In this document: piece after piece, positions 13,749 through 59,509 of the stretch
Numbering within the stretch: position 1 is the stretch's first letter
Layout of the letters: each line of letters begins with the position of its first letter
Source of the DNA: a virus
Taxonomy: Duplodnaviria; Caudoviricetes
Reading direction: 5' to 3' (one strand)
IMG/VR virus record: IMGVR_UViG_3300025132_000036
Location: 1 to 60,287 of that record
Length of the DNA: 60,287 bases
The notes under the pieces: model-generated
Seen by the model: the letters and a program-made list of their open reading frames with translations, nothing else
What the model was told of the DNA's origin: nothing
Database searches by the model: none
Made by a program: the position numbers and the translations under genes

Positions 13749-14309
13749 ATGGTTGATGCGTACTCCACAAAAACCGGAATGTCCTTCGGTGTTAAGTGGG
13801 ACTGGCGAGAAGCCGACCGGGCTATCGCAACCATGGACGCTACCGCGTCCGAGGTTATGGCTGAGGCCATCAAGGACGCCATGATGGAGGAGATGAGCAA
13901 CACGCAGCGGTACATCAAAGACTCCGTGCCTGTACGTCAACGCTACATGGGGTTCAAGACCGCGAACTCGTTGATTGTGGAAGAAGGTAAGACTACCGAA
14001 GGTATGGCTGAGGTCCGCTTTGGTTCTGACCCGATTGACTCCGGCGGTGTTGAGGGTTCTCGTGGCGGCAAGATTGCGGCGATGTTGCAGGGCGGAGTAG
14101 CGCCGTTTGCCTACCCGTTCACATTCAAGACGATTAAGAACAGTCCGGGTTGGGGCACAATTGGCGGCGGCTTCATCAACGCTAAGACCGGAGACAACAT
14201 GGTTCACCCCGGCTTTGCGAGCATTGGGTGGCTTGACTTTGCTGCTGACGCGGTGCAACAGAACTTGCTTGAGACCCTCGAGATGCGACTTCAGGAGGCG
14301 TGGGGATGA
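13749..14309 (+). CDS. Putative tail completion/neck protein (HK97 gp10-like)
   Basis: Position; 'SVPV' and 'HPG' motifs. Confidence 0.55.
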   Translation: MVDAYSTKTGMSFGVKWDWREADRAIATMDATASEVMAEAIKDAMMEEMSNTQRYIKDSVPVRQRYMGFKTANSLIVEEGKTTEGMAEVRFGSDPIDSGGVEGSRGGKIAAMLQGGVAPFAYPFTFKTIKNSPGWGTIGGGFINAKTGDNMVHPGFASIGWLDFAADAVQQNLLETLEMRLQEAWG

Positions 14310-48578: not shown

Positions 48579-49732
48579 GCGTCCACCCCCAAGCAGGAAG
48601 CGGCCTGCACCGCCTCGAAGTCGCACATCGCCTCGGCCTCCTTGATGGCCTCAGCCAACCGTTGCCGCGTCAGCGTCATGACGTTGTGTGCCTCGCCCAT
48701 CCGTAGGTCGGCTTGGTGCTGCTGCTTGCGGAACCAGTCCTCCGTCAGCCGCTCACGAGCACCCTTGTATTGGGTGTACGAGCGCTCCTCAATCCGGGCT
48801 TGCCGTGCGAGGTGGCGCACTTGCCGGAGGGCGTGCTCCCGCTTGCCGTTTGCTTCAAGGCCACCGTCACCCTCCAAGAGCCATTCGCACCAGTCAATCC
48901 GGTCCAACCATTGCTGAAGCGTCTTGACGCAATCACGGTGCTGCACCTGCTGACCGTACGACCCGCTCTGCGGGTTGCCGCTCGGGCTGAACGCGACCAC
49001 ACGTGCTCCGGCACGGTACAGGGCGTCGTCCTCAAGCGACAGGTTCCACGGCGCAACACAAACCGGTGTCTCGTCCATGCCTCCGTCTGCATTCGCCTGT
49101 AGGCAGATGGCCTGCATGTGGGAATGGGGGTGGTCCCACTCCGGGTTGACTAACCGCAAATGCTGCTTGCGCTGCACTCCCTTCGAGTCCACGAACCGCA
49201 CGTATTGGCGACCGAGGCGACCGGAATTCCCTTGGCTTGGGCCGGTGTGGGCGATGAAGTGCTCCAGTTCCTCGCCTGCGAGGGGCCACCGATAGGTCAT
49301 CTTGACCACATCGGAGCGTTGTGAATGTCCGAACACGAGGGGCAGGTGCTCCGGCGCAATGTGTGACTTCGCAGCACGGCGCTTGAGTTCCTCGGCCTCG
49401 GCTCGTGCAATGGCGATGGTCTGCTTCATGGAAGCGTACATGGTCGGTGCATGGGCGAGGTGGGCGGTGAGGTCCCGGCGCGAGGCTTGCTCGAAGGCAA
49501 CCTGTGCCTCCTCGTCGCTCACCTTCACGGGTCGGTTCTGACCGGGGTACGTAGGGTTGGGGTGAGGGTCGTAGCGCCACTTGTGAAAGTTCGCGCCGTA
49601 TCGGCGTGAGAACGAGAGCAGCCCTTGCAGCAGGCGGTTCGCCGTGGTGTCCTGCGTAAAGAGCAGCACCTGCGGTCGCCGCAAGGCGGGGCGGGTCTTC
49701 GGTGTGTGTATCTTGTTTGGTTGGTTTTGCAT
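48575..49732 (-). CDS. Hypothetical early protein (385 aa)
   Basis: GGAGG RBS and TTTATAT promoter; C-terminal coiled coil. Confidence 0.75.
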   Translation of the reverse strand: MQNQPNKIHTPKTRPALRRPQVLLFTQDTTANRLLQGLLSFSRRYGANFHKWRYDPHPNPTYPGQNRPVKVSDEEAQVAFEQASRRDLTAHLAHAPTMYASMKQTIAIARAEAEELKRRAAKSHIAPEHLPLVFGHSQRSDVVKMTYRWPLAGEELEHFIAHTGPSQGNSGRLGRQYVRFVDSKGVQRKQHLRLVNPEWDHPHSHMQAICLQANADGGMDETPVCVAPWNLSLEDDALYRAGARVVAFSPSGNPQSGSYGQQVQHRDCVKTLQQWLDRIDWCEWLLEGDGGLEANGKREHALRQVRHLARQARIEERSYTQYKGARERLTEDWFRKQQHQADLRMGEAHNVMTLTRQRLAEAIKEAEAMCDFEAVQAASCLGVDA

Positions 49733-53786: not shown

Positions 53787-54422
53787 TCAGTAGGACACGG
53801 GCGCTTCAGGCCAGAAGTCCGTCAGGTCGAGCGAGTCCACCCGAAGATGGTACTGGTTCTCGGTCATCAGGGAATGGATGCCGCCAACCTGCTTCCAGTC
53901 GAACATCGGCTCGGGGATGCAGGCGTAGGCTTCGGCCATGATTTCCACGGTCCCGTCGGGCAGGGGCATGGGGTCATAGTGGGGGGAAGCCCACTCATCC
54001 ACACCGAACCAAACGGTTCCGGGTTGCACACGCACCGGGAGCCAGAGGCGACCGAAGTCCGCCATCTGTTCGGCTTTGAGCCGCGCGGCCTCCGTCAGGG
54101 CGTTGACGATGGGCTTTGGAAGCCACACCATTTCGGCGGTGTTGACGCCGAACGTCTTGCCTTCGGGATGGTTTGGCCGGTAGCGGTTGGGGTTCGCCGA
54201 GTCAAAGAGCCCAAAGGACTCGTTGCGGACGAACGCGAGCAACCGCTGGGTGCTCCACCATTCTTGGTGCGTCGTGGTCATGTCCGGCGCAAAATGGCCG
54301 GAACCGGTTGGTGGCGTCAGGAAGGACACCAACCACATGACGTGCAAGCGCACGTTTTCAATCAGTCCCACGCTTGCTGCGTGGGAAGCATTCACCTCGT
54401 TCTGTACAGTCTTCTCAGACAT
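53787..54422 (-). CDS. Hypothetical protein (211 aa)
   Basis: ORF on the coding strand after a structured intergenic region. Confidence 0.65.
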   Translation of the reverse strand: MSEKTVQNEVNASHAASVGLIENVRLHVMWLVSFLTPPTGSGHFAPDMTTTHQEWWSTQRLLAFVRNESFGLFDSANPNRYRPNHPEGKTFGVNTAEMVWLPKPIVNALTEAARLKAEQMADFGRLWLPVRVQPGTVWFGVDEWASPHYDPMPLPDGTVEIMAEAYACIPEPMFDWKQVGGIHSLMTENQYHLRVDSLDLTDFWPEAPVSY

Positions 54423-54645
54423 GTGGTGCTGCCTGCCCCCTGAAGGGCAGAACAGTCACCTGTTGAGAAGGGGTGGCCACAGGGATGGCCGATGCTCACC
54501 CTGAATCTGCCCTTGCGGGCTTACTCGGCTTCGTTGAGAGGCCGGAGACTTGGGGGGGCTACCCACCCCGGCATTCCGGGCGAGGGTGGGTAGCGGTCTC
54601 GTCAGTCACAATGCTGACGTGTGTGCGTGTTGACGCTTACTCTGC

Positions 54646-57474
54646 TCAGCGGAGCCAACGCATGTCGCGGTAGTCGTCCGTCGCCCAGTTCCACTTCTCG
54701 GAGAAGAAGTCCTCGTCCAGAGACTGGTCGAGGTGGTCACGGGCGTGGCCGGCCGCAAGGTCTGCGTCTGCATCACGGTAGTCGCCCTTGGCGACCCACG
54801 ACCAATCAAGGTCTTGTTGGGACCAGATATCCACGTACAGGGAGCGGGGCAGTTCGTATTCCACAATGTGGTCCTCGTCCACCGCCGTTTGTCCCCGGTG
54901 CGTGTTTGCGTCGTAGCCGTCGTACCACTCGCCTTCATGGATGAAGGGAGGCCATCCGACGTAACCGAAGTCAGCCACACCTGCCTCGATGGCCGCGTCC
55001 TGCGCGGCAACTTGAAGCGCGTTGCGGTCAGCAACGGACACCTTGGGCGTCAGGTCAAGCGCACAGTTGTCCGCATTGCCGGAGGCTTTGCGGGGCTTGC
55101 TCCACGACCAACGGGTGTTTTGCCCGTAGGTGGTGGCGTAGGTGCGCCAGTCGTACGACGTGGCTGCGGTCTGGGCCGAGCCGGCAATGTCGCGGGAGGT
55201 AATCGCACCCGAAGGCGTGATTGTGTAGTGGCGACCAATGACGCATTCGTACACGGAAGCCAGTTCCTTGCCGAAGGCGTCTTCGAGGTGCGCGGTAGTG
55301 CTGCCGACCACAACAGGACCGGTGGTCTTGTCGCGGAGCCGACCGAACGAGAGTGGGTTGCCCCCGTTCGTCCAGAAGTGCAGGTGGTCAGGTTGGTCGC
55401 GGTCTGCCCAGATGAGGGACATGCTGCCCTTTGCGTACTTGACTACGGTTTCAATGCCGCCCACCTCGAGGGCTGCGGCCACCGCTTGAGAGTCAACATC
55501 GCCAGTTGGCTCGACCTTGATTCCTGCCCACACGTCTTCGTAGTTGTGAACGACGCCGTTGTGGACCAACACCACGCGCTCGTTGTGAGAGGCGTGGGGG
55601 TGCGCGTTTTCGGGCGTGTTTGCACCGTGCGTTGCGTACCGCGTGTGGACCATGGACCAGTTGATGTTCGTCTGCCCGAGTTGCTTGACCGTCTTGGCGG
55701 TGTACTTCTCGAGCGACTCGGCATGTGCAGCGACGCGCCATGTACGCAGGCCGTCCTTGCTGCGGATAGCCCACCCGGCTGCTTGTCCACCCCGCGAGGC
55801 GAGGAGGGTGTGCAACTTGGCGAGCCACTTGCCCTTGACGAACTTGCGGTTGTTTGCACGGTGGATGGCTCCAATGCCGCAGCCCACAATCAGGGCAGCG
55901 GCGGCAACCCATGAGCCGAAGCCCATGAGAAGGGACAAGAGTCCGAGCGCCGTGGCGTCCAACGAAAACTGGGACCACGAGAGGTGGTCGTCTGGGTCTT
56001 GGCCTGCGGCCTCCGCACAGCGCGTACAACCGCCTCGGAAGTACACAACGCTGAGTTCCGTATCTTGAGGGGTGAGTTCAAGGGTACAACCGAACTGCTC
56101 GTGCATGTATTCCTGAACACCCAAGGTGGCCAGTTCAGACCCGCAATCGTCGCATTGGATGTAGGGGTGCGCTTCGTACAGGGCATTGCGTCGTTCCACC
56201 GACAGTTGGTCGAGGTAGTACATGCGGCCGGGCACCCACAGGGAGTCCCCACCGCTCATCAGGCCCTGCAACGTCGCCGTGTTTGCGGTAGCGAGGGTTG
56301 GGTCTGTGTCCATCCATGGCCACTCGGGCTCAGGACCCTCATTCGCAAGGTGACGTGCGCGTGCTTCCCAGAACTGCATCTCCGGGTCATCCTCGGACAG
56401 ACCGAGGTAGTCCCGAATAGCAGCGATGCTGCTGAAGTAGGAGTCGCGTGTCTGAACGCTGCGGCGTTTCTTGGTCACATGACCGGCCGCCCAGTCCCAC
56501 CACGCATCTTCATCCATGGAACGCTGCACCATCAGGTAGCACAGTCGAATCCATGCGTACATCTTGTTCGAGTTCACGGTGCCTTGGTGGAGTCGGAACT
56601 CCACGGTGCCGTAACTTTCGAGGCAGGTCAGACGGACAGGCAGGTACCGGTCAGTACCGATGACCCGCCAAATGTCGCTGTACACGGCGCTCTTGACGTT
56701 GGGGTTCATCTCTGAGAGCGGCTTGTCCTTGGACCATCCGAACAGAGACTTCATGCCCCGTGGGTTGCTGTTGTCGAGCGCCTTTGCGACCTTCACCGTC
56801 TTGCTCGTCGGGCTGTAGTGGGTGTCGGGTCCTGCGGCACTCTTGATATCCCGTAGGTTCCGAGCGCCGGAGTAACTGTTGATGCCCGTCTTGGTGCGAC
56901 GGCTTGGGCTGACGATTGACTCGAAAGCACCAAACAAAATGTAGTACGCAATCGCAGTACGCATTCCCACACCCTTTGCCTGCTCGAAGGACACGGGGCC
57001 GTTGTTGTTGTTGTCGAAAGACCCGTTGTGGTCACGCAGCCCGATGTGGACGTGCATGCCGCACGAGGTATCAACCCCGAGCACTCCTGAAGCAGAGCGA
57101 CCAATGGCCCGCACGTAGTTTCGGATTCGTCCCCAACCGTGAAGCGGGGGAGACACGATTTCCGCGCTGCCGTACGACCCGCCGTTGAGCGAGGAGTCGG
57201 TGACGATTTTGGTATTCGTCATGGTACGATGTGAGTACCCCTCGTCTTGTGCGTGGACGTAGCCGTCGCTCGTCATGCGCAGGTACTGCGCAAGGGTGAC
57301 GTTGTTGAACTCAGCGGCCCGCTTGCGGACCTCCAGTTCCAACCCCGCTCGAGCGACCATTCGGTCGTGGTGCTTGGTTCCAATCCAAGCGACGCCAACT
57401 GCTGCCGTGAGCACAAAGGCCCAGAGCATGGGAAGCAGAGTAAGCGCCATGTTAATGTCTGTGGTTGCAGACAT
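54646..57474 (-). CDS. Amidoligase (COOH-NH2 ligase) fused to class II glutamine amidotransferase, with hydrophobic segments
   Basis: GLELE, 'VTDSSL', 'EIVSPPL', 'SCGMHVH', 'TVEFRLHQGT'; then CGI, 'SRG..AAG', 'HTRYATHG', 'NAHP', 'HNG', 'VDSQ'. Confidence 0.9.
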   Translation of the reverse strand: MSATTDINMALTLLPMLWAFVLTAAVGVAWIGTKHHDRMVARAGLELEVRKRAAEFNNVTLAQYLRMTSDGYVHAQDEGYSHRTMTNTKIVTDSSLNGGSYGSAEIVSPPLHGWGRIRNYVRAIGRSASGVLGVDTSCGMHVHIGLRDHNGSFDNNNNGPVSFEQAKGVGMRTAIAYYILFGAFESIVSPSRRTKTGINSYSGARNLRDIKSAAGPDTHYSPTSKTVKVAKALDNSNPRGMKSLFGWSKDKPLSEMNPNVKSAVYSDIWRVIGTDRYLPVRLTCLESYGTVEFRLHQGTVNSNKMYAWIRLCYLMVQRSMDEDAWWDWAAGHVTKKRRSVQTRDSYFSSIAAIRDYLGLSEDDPEMQFWEARARHLANEGPEPEWPWMDTDPTLATANTATLQGLMSGGDSLWVPGRMYYLDQLSVERRNALYEAHPYIQCDDCGSELATLGVQEYMHEQFGCTLELTPQDTELSVVYFRGGCTRCAEAAGQDPDDHLSWSQFSLDATALGLLSLLMGFGSWVAAAALIVGCGIGAIHRANNRKFVKGKWLAKLHTLLASRGGQAAGWAIRSKDGLRTWRVAAHAESLEKYTAKTVKQLGQTNINWSMVHTRYATHGANTPENAHPHASHNERVVLVHNGVVHNYEDVWAGIKVEPTGDVDSQAVAAALEVGGIETVVKYAKGSMSLIWADRDQPDHLHFWTNGGNPLSFGRLRDKTTGPVVVGSTTAHLEDAFGKELASVYECVIGRHYTITPSGAITSRDIAGSAQTAATSYDWRTYATTYGQNTRWSWSKPRKASGNADNCALDLTPKVSVADRNALQVAAQDAAIEAGVADFGYVGWPPFIHEGEWYDGYDANTHRGQTAVDEDHIVEYELPRSLYVDIWSQQDLDWSWVAKGDYRDADADLAAGHARDHLDQSLDEDFFSEKWNWATDDYRDMRWLR

Positions 57475-58385
57475 GTAGCATCCCTCCTTGGGAACCCGAG
57501 ATGGGCCGTAGCCGTTGGGTCGCGTTGCGTTATCTCGGATGGTCGCGCAACGAAGGACGTATGGTAGGTATCTGTATTACTGCCTGACGACGTGCGTACG
57601 TGCCTTAGTACGCCATGGACCGTATCTGTATCAACGGTCACTCTGTCGGGGCCGAAGCCGGGACAGTCGGGGGAGAGGTCTGACGGGCAGTTCTGGCTGC
57701 ACGTCCTCCCGAGCGAGTCTGCTTACATGTCTTCGCTTGCGCGGTGCCTCCGGTGTTTGTTTGGACCAATGCCGTAAATCTGTGGAGGCTGATTCTGTGC
57801 CGAGGACCTTATCCCTCGTTTGTCTGACTCGCTCTCTTGTCGTCAGGCGTCATGTACCCACTTGAGTGCGGTTTGTTTGGACCATCTGTTTGCCGTAGCA
57901 TCCAGTACGTCTGTGAGTAGGTGGGCTCCGGTATCTGTTGAAACCATCATCGCCCGTACAGGGGGGTGCCGCCGGTCTGTTGGGACCGGCGAACATGACG
58001 CTGATTTTCTGAGGTGGGAGTCTTCATTGCTCGATGCTCTTACGTCATCTTTTACGCTCTGTTTGCACAGTTCGCGTACCTCCATGCTCCCGTCGGTCCT
58101 GCTTGCACCGCAGCCTGCTCGTTCACACAGGGGTATCTGGCTCGGACTCTTGTCCACCTCAGTTTAGCCACTATATCATCCGGCACCCTTGGGTCCTGCT
58201 GCGTCCGTGCAAGTGGACCACAACACCACAAGGGTGCGTGTTTGCCTCAGAAGGGTGCCGTCAAAGCGGCTTGTTAGGATGCGATGGGGACCAGTCCGAA
58301 GGACCAACCCCCACCCCGTCGCCGGGTCGTGTAACCGTCCACACAACCACGCCGCCGGTGAGGGGTCGTCGCTGCTCGGGTATGA
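57455..58385 (-). ncRNA. Candidate large structured non-coding RNA / giant 5' leader
   Basis: No credible ORF; TATA promoter at 58406-58415; cUUCGg x2, GCAA tetraloop, several 9-10 bp long-range stems, recurrent ACAGA. Confidence 0.7.
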
Positions 58386-59399: not shown

Positions 59400-59509
59400 G
59401 GGGCGCACACCTACCCCTCCCCGCCGAGCCGAGGGGTAGCCGAGCACCCCATAGAAGGGGAGCATCAGCCCGGCCGTGGGTTGATATAGGACCACACCGT
59501 CGGAGGAGC

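Follow-up and report, generated by a model that had tools for sequence, protein, structure and literature searches.

Cis pairings between the two ends of a bacterial mRNA are known from only a few cases, namely RNAIII, icaR and hbs. In icaR of Staphylococcus aureus (PMC3868564; PMC7821165), a 3'UTR segment pairs with the 5' part of the same mRNA across the whole coding region, its UCCCC motif binding the Shine-Dalgarno sequence, and the resulting duplex lowers expression and is an RNase III substrate. In hbs of Bacillus subtilis (PMC5737220; PMC7821165), a pairing of about 14 nt between both UTRs of a short gene protects the 5'UTR from RNase Y, an effect tied to translation and to ribonuclease access. 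OppZ and CarZ of Vibrio cholerae (PMC7398697) are released 3'UTR-derived sRNAs, in which sequence just after the last stop codon of an operon is complementary to an upstream part of the same operon's mRNA and gives feedback. Their terminators end in U-runs. Long-distance interactions such as the Min Jou interaction of RNA phage MS2 place one arm of a helix in an early coding region, where translating ribosomes melt it so that translation sets the fold of the RNA, while genome cyclisation of flaviviruses joins the two ends of an RNA genome (PMC7999817). There, the 5'CS lies a few dozen codons into the first ORF, in the capsid coding region, the 3'CS lies in the 3'UTR, and the pairing competes with translation. 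The two enzyme families dealt with here (PF12224, PF13522) are common in phage early regions and have been described as pairs of separate genes in LUZ24-like, phiEco32 and OM43 phages (PMC3890496; PMC10580990; Iyer et al. 2009, cited therein), without mention, in the descriptions consulted, of any RNA or inverted-repeat feature around them.

Here, we have analysed a complete marine phage genome of 60,287 bp (referred to as the window), in which a sequence-only reading had pointed out a 17-bp helix bracketing a 2.8-kb amidoligase ORF. That observation proved correct. On the - strand, TGGCGCTTACTCTGCTT at 57449-57433 and GAGCAGAGTAAGCGTCA at 54647-54631 form 17 contiguous pairs, comprising 15 Watson-Crick and two G-U pairs, one internal and one terminal; 13 of the Watson-Crick pairs make up an exact core (54634-54646 / 57434-57446). 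Relatives of the locus are denoted by L numbers in the following. The features of the region are:

57475..57871 (-), conserved, structured non-coding leader upstream of the ORF, 65-100% identical to L002 per 60-nt window and 83-100% upstream of 57570, with indels that are not multiples of 3, a fold z-score of -4.1, and five ACAGAT and two GGTCCAAAC repeats; it was not shown to pair with the trailer and is context only.
57483..57489 (-), Shine-Dalgarno-like AAGGAGG, 8 nt before the ATG at 57474 and outside the loop closed by the helix; identical in L002 and L004.
54646..57474 (-), ORF of 942 aa with, in order, an N-terminal hydrophobic segment, an Amidoligase_2 domain, a Cys-rich linker, a second hydrophobic segment and a class II glutamine amidotransferase beginning at the invariant G531-C532-G-I-G.
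57433..57449 (-), 5' arm of the helix, codons 9-14 (M-A-L-T-L-L) of this ORF, nt +26 to +42 from the A of the start ATG; L002 and L004 carry the same arm with T>G at the Leu codon.
54631..54647 (-), 3' arm of the helix, overlapping the last two bases of the stop TGA (54648-54646) and the first 15 nt of the 3' untranslated region; an island of conservation in a stretch that is only 63% identical.
54600..54619 (-), small hairpin CGTCAG-CATTGTGA-CTGACG, 11 nt after the 3' arm; invariant in L002 and L003.
54552..54594 (-), GC-rich hairpin (54594-54558, dG -26 kcal/mol) followed by a run of six C (54557-54552), the likely end or punctuation of the transcript, placing the 3' arm inside a 3'UTR of about 90 nt; the stem is kept in L002 through changed pairs, and elements of the same type sit at 59403 and 53349 on the - strand and after the gene in 15 of 21 relatives.

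Some details of the earlier description need correction. The 5' arm had been placed just before an in-frame ATG at 57429, but this codon is Met16; the ORF starts at 57474, both its ribosome-binding site and its N-terminal residues being kept in relatives, and the 5' arm is therefore located inside the ORF. The helix leaves the ribosome-binding site and the first 8 codons outside the loop.

Considered within this genome alone, the helix is only suggestive. The window holds 65 maximal exact inverted repeats of 13 bp or more, 9 of them within 3.5 kb, compared with 32.2 +/- 6.1 and 3.6 +/- 1.4 in twenty dinucleotide shuffles, so that as an unanchored inverted repeat it is not special. Anchored to the ends of the gene, however, it does stand out: the 40-nt window next to the stop ranks 1 of 766 windows against the 5' region, the feature is specific to this gene, the best of 46 tested in this genome (score 40, next best 28), none of 200 trailer shuffles reaches it (maximum 33), and the arm has no third copy at up to 3 mismatches.

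Comparison with relatives, which had been proposed beforehand as a test by way of compensatory changes, settled the matter. All 21 full-length relatives examined (32-63% protein identity, 45-58% GC) carry a helix of 9-17 bp joining the early coding region to the bases within 15 nt of the final stop codon. In 18 of 18 fused relatives, it lies between the 170 nt around the N-terminal coding region and the 40 nt at the stop, ranking 1 to 39 of 506-766 control windows in each locus, with a Fisher p of 3e-15 over 15 clusters below 70% protein identity, taking the worst p of each cluster. Two held-out loci found later, L084 and L085, show it as well, at ranks 4/561 and 10/685, while L021, in which the gene is split into two overlapping ORFs, pairs codons 9-13 of ORF1 with stop+4 of ORF2 over 14 Watson-Crick pairs, so that the helix brackets both. 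The 5' arm starts at +26 (window, L002, L021), +30 (L019) or about +102 to +118 (the others), always downstream of the start codon, and the 3' arm starts between stop-1 and stop+15.

The arms differ in sequence between relatives, the 5' arm reading, for example, GGCGCTTACTCTGC, GAAACCGCTT, AATGAACGAATGAC, AACGAACGAAAGC, GAAGAAACAAT or ATAGACAGATG. In 16 codon-anchored loci, 87.0% of cells are Watson-Crick, against 67.1 +/- 2.7% when partners are permuted; none of 2000 permutations reaches the observed value, and 25 of 192 cells are compensatory. In 14 of those loci, 9 of 12 columns show two or three Watson-Crick pair types, the non-coding 3' arm tracking the coding 5' arm. Among close relatives, L002 carries A>C in the 3' arm opposite the T>G of the 5' arm, turning the central U-A of the window into G-C, and a T>C that turns the internal G-U into G-C, while between L016 and L085 a G-C becomes C-G. 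Chance complementarity without function, for which only the abundance of 13-bp repeats in the window speaks, is refuted by this recurrence at the same two landmarks and can be practically dismissed. The helix also survives competition with local structure in silico, being part of the co-fold minimum-energy structure of about 315-nt 5' and 300-nt 3' fragments in 18 of 18 loci, with all or all but one of the arm bases paired in 17 and 9 of 12 in L018.

The interpretation given in the sequence-only reading was supported only in part. Its claim that the G-U wobbles, working only on the coding strand, argue for pairing at the RNA level fails, since across the family G-U lengthens the core in 6 loci and A-C (G-U on the other strand) also in 6, and the antisense duplex is the more stable one in 13 of 18 loci. 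Its main inference, that the ORF is looped out of a larger intron-like RNA formed by leader and trailer, is largely refuted and very unlikely. Although both flanks are conserved and fold better than shuffles (z-scores of -4.1 and -3.8) and the helix closes the ORF into a loop, no Rfam family matched at gathering score over the whole window, and up to E=10 over 54200-58300 the only two hits were a miRNA and a lncRNA model at chance level. Pfam revealed only Amidoligase_2 and GATase_6/4/7 in the ORF, and no homing endonuclease or reverse transcriptase/maturase; the 5' arm lies inside the ORF, about 110 nt into it in 17 of 21 relatives; the second-best leader-trailer helix scores 26, against a shuffle mean of 24.8 and maximum of 33; and the flanking ORFs match no family and give no sign of a split gene.

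A processing or circularisation stem, the second alternative offered, appears improbable. In this view, RNase III or another double-strand-specific nuclease would cut both arms, as in the long-range stems that bracket 16S and 23S rRNA, and so trim, mature or circularise the ORF-containing RNA. The helix brackets a whole transcription unit, including the two-ORF form of L021, bulged extensions lengthen it to about 17-24 pairs in several relatives, and the icaR duplex offers a precedent (PMC7821165). Yet the contiguous helices of 9-13 bp in most relatives appear shorter than typical RNase III substrates, with their double-stranded region of about two helical turns, although this counts only contiguous pairs (9-17 across the family) and not the bulged extensions, and a cut in the 5' arm would remove the start codon and the first 8-40 codons, destroying the message rather than maturing it, an outcome already contained in the explanation we favor below. 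The 17 uninterrupted pairs show no archaeal bulge-helix-bulge geometry, that is, two 3-nt bulges separated by a 4-bp helix. The third alternative, a coupling of translation initiation to full-length transcription, fits our own reading.

It was also considered whether the feature works at the DNA level, either as inverted repeats that let the gene body invert as an on/off switch or as two inverted copies of a binding site for a DNA-looping protein. Inverted repeats flanking a segment define invertons, covariation alone does not separate DNA from RNA, and the wobble counts give no preference for the sense strand. Nevertheless, we regard this as unlikely. The complete genome has no match to Resolvase or Phage_integrase (controls gave matches in 12 and 14 of 14 genomes), and the arms share no common core across relatives, whereas recombinase or repressor sites should. 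All 21 of 21 loci, and the contigs of 4 marine DNA runs that cross either arm, are collinear with no strand-changing joint, although contigs do hide rare forms. Inversion would fuse the N-terminus to non-coding antisense sequence, and 9-14 bp is too short for homologous recombination. The placement of the 3' arm at the stop, upstream of a strong GC hairpin in 15 of 21 loci, of a type that punctuates other intergenic sites of this early unit, points to a transcript, though it is only suggestive.

What the comparison demonstrates is that selection maintains base complementarity between a segment early in the coding region of the amidoligase-glutamine amidotransferase gene and the first bases of its 3' untranslated region at the stop codon, 2.8 kb apart. 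Everything beyond this, including pairing in the mRNA, the transcript ends and any effect on translation or stability, is inferred from sequence, as no RNA run was found to hold this sequence. Our best explanation, which we consider about as likely as not, is a cis 5'CDS-3'UTR clasp that closes the whole coding region into a loop, with a precedent in the cis 5'-3' pairings that control icaR and hbs mRNAs (PMC7821165). Both arms lie where ribosomes sit, the 5' arm being covered during early elongation and the 3' arm, starting within 15 nt of the stop, by the terminating ribosome, so that the clasp could only exist after the full-length message has been transcribed and while neither site is occupied. 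We think it most likely acts negatively: once the 3' end is made, the helix would close on sparsely translated messages and slow ribosomes entering the body of the ORF and/or offer a double-stranded target to RNase III, limiting the output of a membrane-anchored enzyme to a burst around the time of transcription. The direction of the effect, repression rather than protection from decay, is the least secure step and remains a guess. Furthermore, the helices are short in several relatives (9-11 bp in 9 of 21) and readily unwound by a translating ribosome, so a strong block is not expected, and since a local hairpin would serve for simple protection or pausing, the reason for using a distant partner is likewise inferred. 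A more far-reaching version, which we regard as doubtful although the evidence leaves room for it, is a translation-gated closed loop that re-forms behind each ribosome that has passed the 5' arm and is opened again only when that ribosome reaches the stop codon and sits on the 3' arm, termination thus licensing the next ribosome to enter the body of the ORF like a one-at-a-time turnstile; alternatively, completion of transcription would start a shut-off timer. Either way, it would be the first deeply conserved 5'CDS-3'UTR cyclisation element described for a dsDNA phage or bacterial message, and a case where start and stop of a 2.8-kb operon communicate by direct base pairing.

Pairing in trans is possible but unlikely. 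In this scenario, the stretch of about 90 nt from the stop codon to the GC hairpin would be released as a small RNA whose seed, the 3' arm at its 5' end, represses other copies of its parent mRNA, giving negative feedback as OppZ and CarZ do (PMC7398697). The layout fits, with a seed directly after the stop, a spacer and a stable hairpin; the trailer is 93-97% identical between the window and L002/L003 over 54557-54318, while the ORF is mostly 60-80%; and covariation supports trans pairing as much as cis pairing. On the other hand, the hairpin is followed by a C-run and not by the U-run of the terminators that usually end such sRNAs, the tail being C-rich in 15 of 21 loci and T-rich only in L019, a scan found no terminator-like site on the - strand after the gene, and the target at +26 or about +110 lies outside the region where sRNAs block initiation.

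Our literature searches on phage amidoligases and GATases, amidoligases with inverted repeats, long-range RNA-RNA interactions of bacteriophages with stop codon and covariation, and bacterial mRNA circularization found no description of this feature. It offers a clean natural system for asking what closing a prokaryotic message into a loop does to translation, decay or termination, and it shows that anchoring inverted-repeat searches to gene starts and stops, followed by comparison of relatives, can pull real long-range RNA contacts out of a background in which such repeats are common by chance.

Compared with the described systems, several differences emerge. In the LUZ24-like, phiEco32 and OM43 phages the two enzymes are encoded by separate genes, whereas here they are fused. 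In MS2 the helix masks the start of another gene (replicase) in an RNA genome, while here the other arm is the gene's own 3' end in a dsDNA phage transcript, and flavivirus cyclisation, though matching in geometry, serves RNA replication, for which a dsDNA phage has no need. OppZ and CarZ act in trans as released sRNAs with U-run terminators; here, the hairpin is followed by a C-run. The hbs pairing has a positive effect and involves both UTRs of a short gene, not coding sequence. In contrast to icaR, the partner is not the ribosome-binding site but coding sequence at +26 or about +110, the span is 2.2-2.9 kb, and the 3' arm abuts the stop codon. According to the review (PMC7821165), such functional 3'UTRs are not conserved even between close species, the icaR pairing being absent even in S. 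epidermidis, whereas the present pairing has been held for a very long time, purely by covariation, down to 32% protein identity, across 45-58% GC and in many marine metagenomes, and stays in place when the gene is split into two ORFs.

The window is a complete viral record of 60,287 bp with direct terminal repeats and a GC content of 58%, and belongs to a tailed dsDNA phage with terminase, portal, tape-measure protein and DNA polymerase. Near-identical DNA occurs in marine metagenome runs. The finding lies in a leftward-transcribed block near the right end, with the following parts:

57433-57449, minus strand: 5' arm of the helix, codons 9-14 of the ORF
54631-54647, minus strand: 3' arm of the helix, overlapping the stop codon
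54646-57474, minus strand: ORF of 942 aa, a fusion of Amidoligase_2 (PF12224) with a class II glutamine amidotransferase (PF13522, PF13230, PF13537)

On the minus strand, 57449-57433 pairs with 54647-54631 over 17 contiguous positions, comprising a 13-bp exact core, two more Watson-Crick pairs, and one internal and one terminal G-U. The complementarity described in the sequence-only reading is thus confirmed, although the helix brackets most of the ORF and not, as had been stated, all of it, since the ORF starts with the ATG at 57474, 8 nt after AAGGAGG, and both this site and the N-terminal residues are kept in relatives. The invariant G531-C532-G-I-G (55879-55893, codons 528-532), the N-terminal nucleophile motif of class II amidotransferases, lies in the middle of the fusion after a hydrophobic segment, so that the protein probably needs self-cleavage.

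As a bare inverted repeat the pairing is no more than chance would give: the window has 65 exact inverted repeats of 13 bp or more, nine of them within 3.5 kb, while shuffles give 32 and 3.6, and a repeat search with a seed of 12 listed 119 pairs. Among the 25 longest of those listed, the highest complementarity (96%) was that of a 23-nt inverted repeat at 13858-13880 and 48635-48657, 34.7 kb apart. Anchored to the two ends of the gene, however, the helix does stand out, as it ranks 1 of 766 windows and is the best of 46 genes in this genome, with a score of 40 against 28 for the next. None of 200 trailer shuffles reached it, and there is no third copy of the arm. A second GAGTAAGC in the trailer (54519-54526) could pair with 8 nt of the 5' arm, but is not kept in L002, the whole-gene relative described below, and is probably chance. 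For these comparisons we used contiguous-helix scores, because RNAduplex energies on windows of 150-280 nt proved uninformative, with long spurious duplexes swamping the signal.

The protein has 64 relatives below E=1e-70 that share the fusion or parts of it, the nearest being 63% identical. A blastn search of 54300-57900 against the phage records gave no match, and peptide-pattern scans of viral contigs with the window protein and two further query proteins (P0002 and P0004) found nothing. A metagenome scan yielded three loci, L002 with the whole gene, L003 with its 3' part and L004 with its 5' part; the latter two hold only one end of the gene and were left out of all counts. In L002 the Leu codon CTT is CTG, and the opposite base in the 3' arm has changed from A to C, so that U-A becomes G-C, while the internal G-U has become G-C. 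Though the C-terminal residues before the stop are unalignable and this 60-nt window is only 63% identical, 15 of the 17 arm positions are unchanged, and both changes fit the helix. The 3' half of the 3' arm (GCGT) can also form a 4-bp local hairpin with ACGC four bases downstream (54626-54637, minus strand); in L002 both sides change (GCGC with GCGC) and in L003 the pair is broken, so this may be an alternative fold that competes with the helix. One contig of a 2025 marine run (X4) matches the trailer and diverges just beyond 54620, just before the 3' arm, with letters that look like a variant arm, which hints at a further relative with a changed helix; as its 5' arm could not be seen, it was not used.

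A profile scan of viral contigs, in which 375 tblastn-confirmed stretches were seen, gave 79 loci, 17 of which are full-length, TM-anchored relatives (16 fusions and L021, in which the gene is split) at 32-45% identity and 45-54% GC. Each of them has a helix between the early coding region and the bases at or just after the stop, with a different sequence; for example, L013 has 14 Watson-Crick pairs starting at stop+3, L015 has 13, L018 has 12 at stop+3, and L019 has 13 overlapping the stop. With one fixed procedure, the stop-adjacent window ranks 1-39 of 506-766 control windows in 18 of 18 loci, and Fisher p is 3e-15 over 15 clusters, taking the worst member of each. Two loci found later in binned genomes, L084 and L085, served as a held-out test, and both have the helix, at ranks 4/561 and 10/685. 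In L021 the two ORFs overlap, and codons 9-13 of the first pair with stop+4 of the second over 14 Watson-Crick pairs; the unit that is bracketed is therefore the transcription unit, not a single reading frame. The split in L021 (3544-3600) lies just upstream of the nucleophile motif, and its ORF2 starts with a 16-residue hydrophobic leader before the Cys.

Eight loci of other architecture (L022, L023, L024, L026, L027, L028, L030 and L036) were scanned openly, but their top helices scored 26-35 and showed no consistent stop-codon placement, so we make no claim for those clades, and the shorter or partial matches (L025, L029, L031-L035, L037-L083 and L086-L100) lie outside all of these comparisons. 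In the clade without the N-terminal membrane segment, the start-codon region of the amidoligase gene has an inverted copy of 14-17 nt, located 4.7-5.7 kb downstream in a homologous intergenic spot after several genes (L036:2493 / 8208; L023:2500 / 6511 and 7252; L024:7356). The minus-strand ORFs from that ATG are only 15-17 aa. This could be an operon-wide version of the same pairing, although the 5' side of L024 does not match.

Covariation was examined in 16 loci whose 5' arm lies at the homologous N-E-R-M codons. There, 87.0% of cells are Watson-Crick, whereas permuting partners gives 67.1 +/- 2.7%, and 0 of 2000 permutations reach the observed value. Of 192 cells, 25 are compensatory and 25 are unpaired, the latter mostly at the helix edges and in L010, whose arm sits in another reading frame. 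In 14 of those loci, 9 of 12 columns carry two or three Watson-Crick pair types. The 5' arm lies at +26 to +30 in four loci (window, L002, L021 and L019), before the hydrophobic segment, and at about +102 to +118, just after that segment, in the rest, the start codons of relatives having been chosen by a Shine-Dalgarno heuristic. The 3' arm always starts between stop-1 and stop+15.

The argument that the G-U wobbles indicate RNA-level pairing on the coding strand does not hold across the family, since G-U lengthens the Watson-Crick core in six loci and A-C also in six, and the antisense duplex is the more stable one in 13 of 18 loci, probably because of base composition. Other evidence favours RNA over a feature acting at the DNA level. 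The arms share no common core that a recombinase or repressor could read, the complete genome has no Resolvase or Phage_integrase match, and all 21 loci are collinear, as are the contigs of four marine DNA runs across each arm, which gave no joint at the arms. In 15 of 21 loci, the 3' arm lies between the stop and a strong GC hairpin followed by a C-run. This recurring element, a GC-rich hairpin of 32-37 nt with a G-run and a C-run followed at once by a second C-run instead of a T-run, is found in the window at 54558 after the gene, at two other intergenic sites of the leftward block (59403 and 53349, all on the minus strand), and at 507 on the plus strand. It may be a terminator or RNA-end element of unusual type, or a bistable G-run/C-run switch. 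The arm is thus placed in a 3'UTR of about 90 nt. In a two-fragment co-fold the helix survives local competition in 18 of 18 loci. As no RNA data exist for this phage, the RNA level is inferred, not shown. A promoter and terminator consensus scan found nothing above shuffles, and a search for a T7-like RNA polymerase was uninformative because its control matched nowhere.

The proposal that the ORF is looped out of a larger, intron-like RNA found no support. No Rfam family matched at gathering score over the window, and nothing meaningful appeared up to E=10 over the locus; no tRNA or tmRNA was detected, the ORF is not a mobility protein, and the neighbouring ORFs match no Pfam or PHROG family of known function. 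Relatives with the same flanks but a different or absent ORF had been named beforehand as a check of this proposal, and none was found in exact DNA scans of viral contigs with two conserved flank motifs. Leader and trailer are conserved and structured, yet share no second helix above chance. The non-coding leader (57475-57940, minus strand; about 400-460 nt) is mostly better conserved against L002 than the ORF, with 83-100% identity per 60-nt window upstream of 57570, falling to 65-77% next to the start, compared to mostly 60-80% in the ORF. Its indels are not multiples of 3, it folds with z = -4.1, and it carries 5 of the 10 ACAGAT sites of that strand in the whole genome, plus two GGTCCAAAC(AAAC) repeats, while L004 has about 250 extra nt at the 57871-57881 boundary. 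An archaeal bulge-helix-bulge, one of the alternatives raised, is ruled out by the helix being uninterrupted. Taken together, the interpretation given in the sequence-only reading is partly supported.

What our analysis shows is selected complementarity at two translation landmarks of one transcription unit, a real, conserved and apparently undescribed long-range element. That it acts as a cis clasp, which could form only once the 3' end has been made and only while no ribosome sits on codons 9-14 (or about 35-40) or on the stop, is inferred, as is any effect on expression. We think that it most likely limits expression of the membrane-anchored enzyme, by slowing entry into the ORF and/or by exposing a duplex to RNase III. 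A protective role, as in hbs, or action in trans as a 3'UTR-derived sRNA, as with OppZ, are live alternatives. Pairing between the 5' and 3' parts of an mRNA is already known, the closest published cases being icaR, hbs and OppZ/CarZ, from which the element described here differs in pairing with coding sequence, in abutting the stop codon, in spanning 2.2-2.9 kb, and in being conserved far beyond species level.
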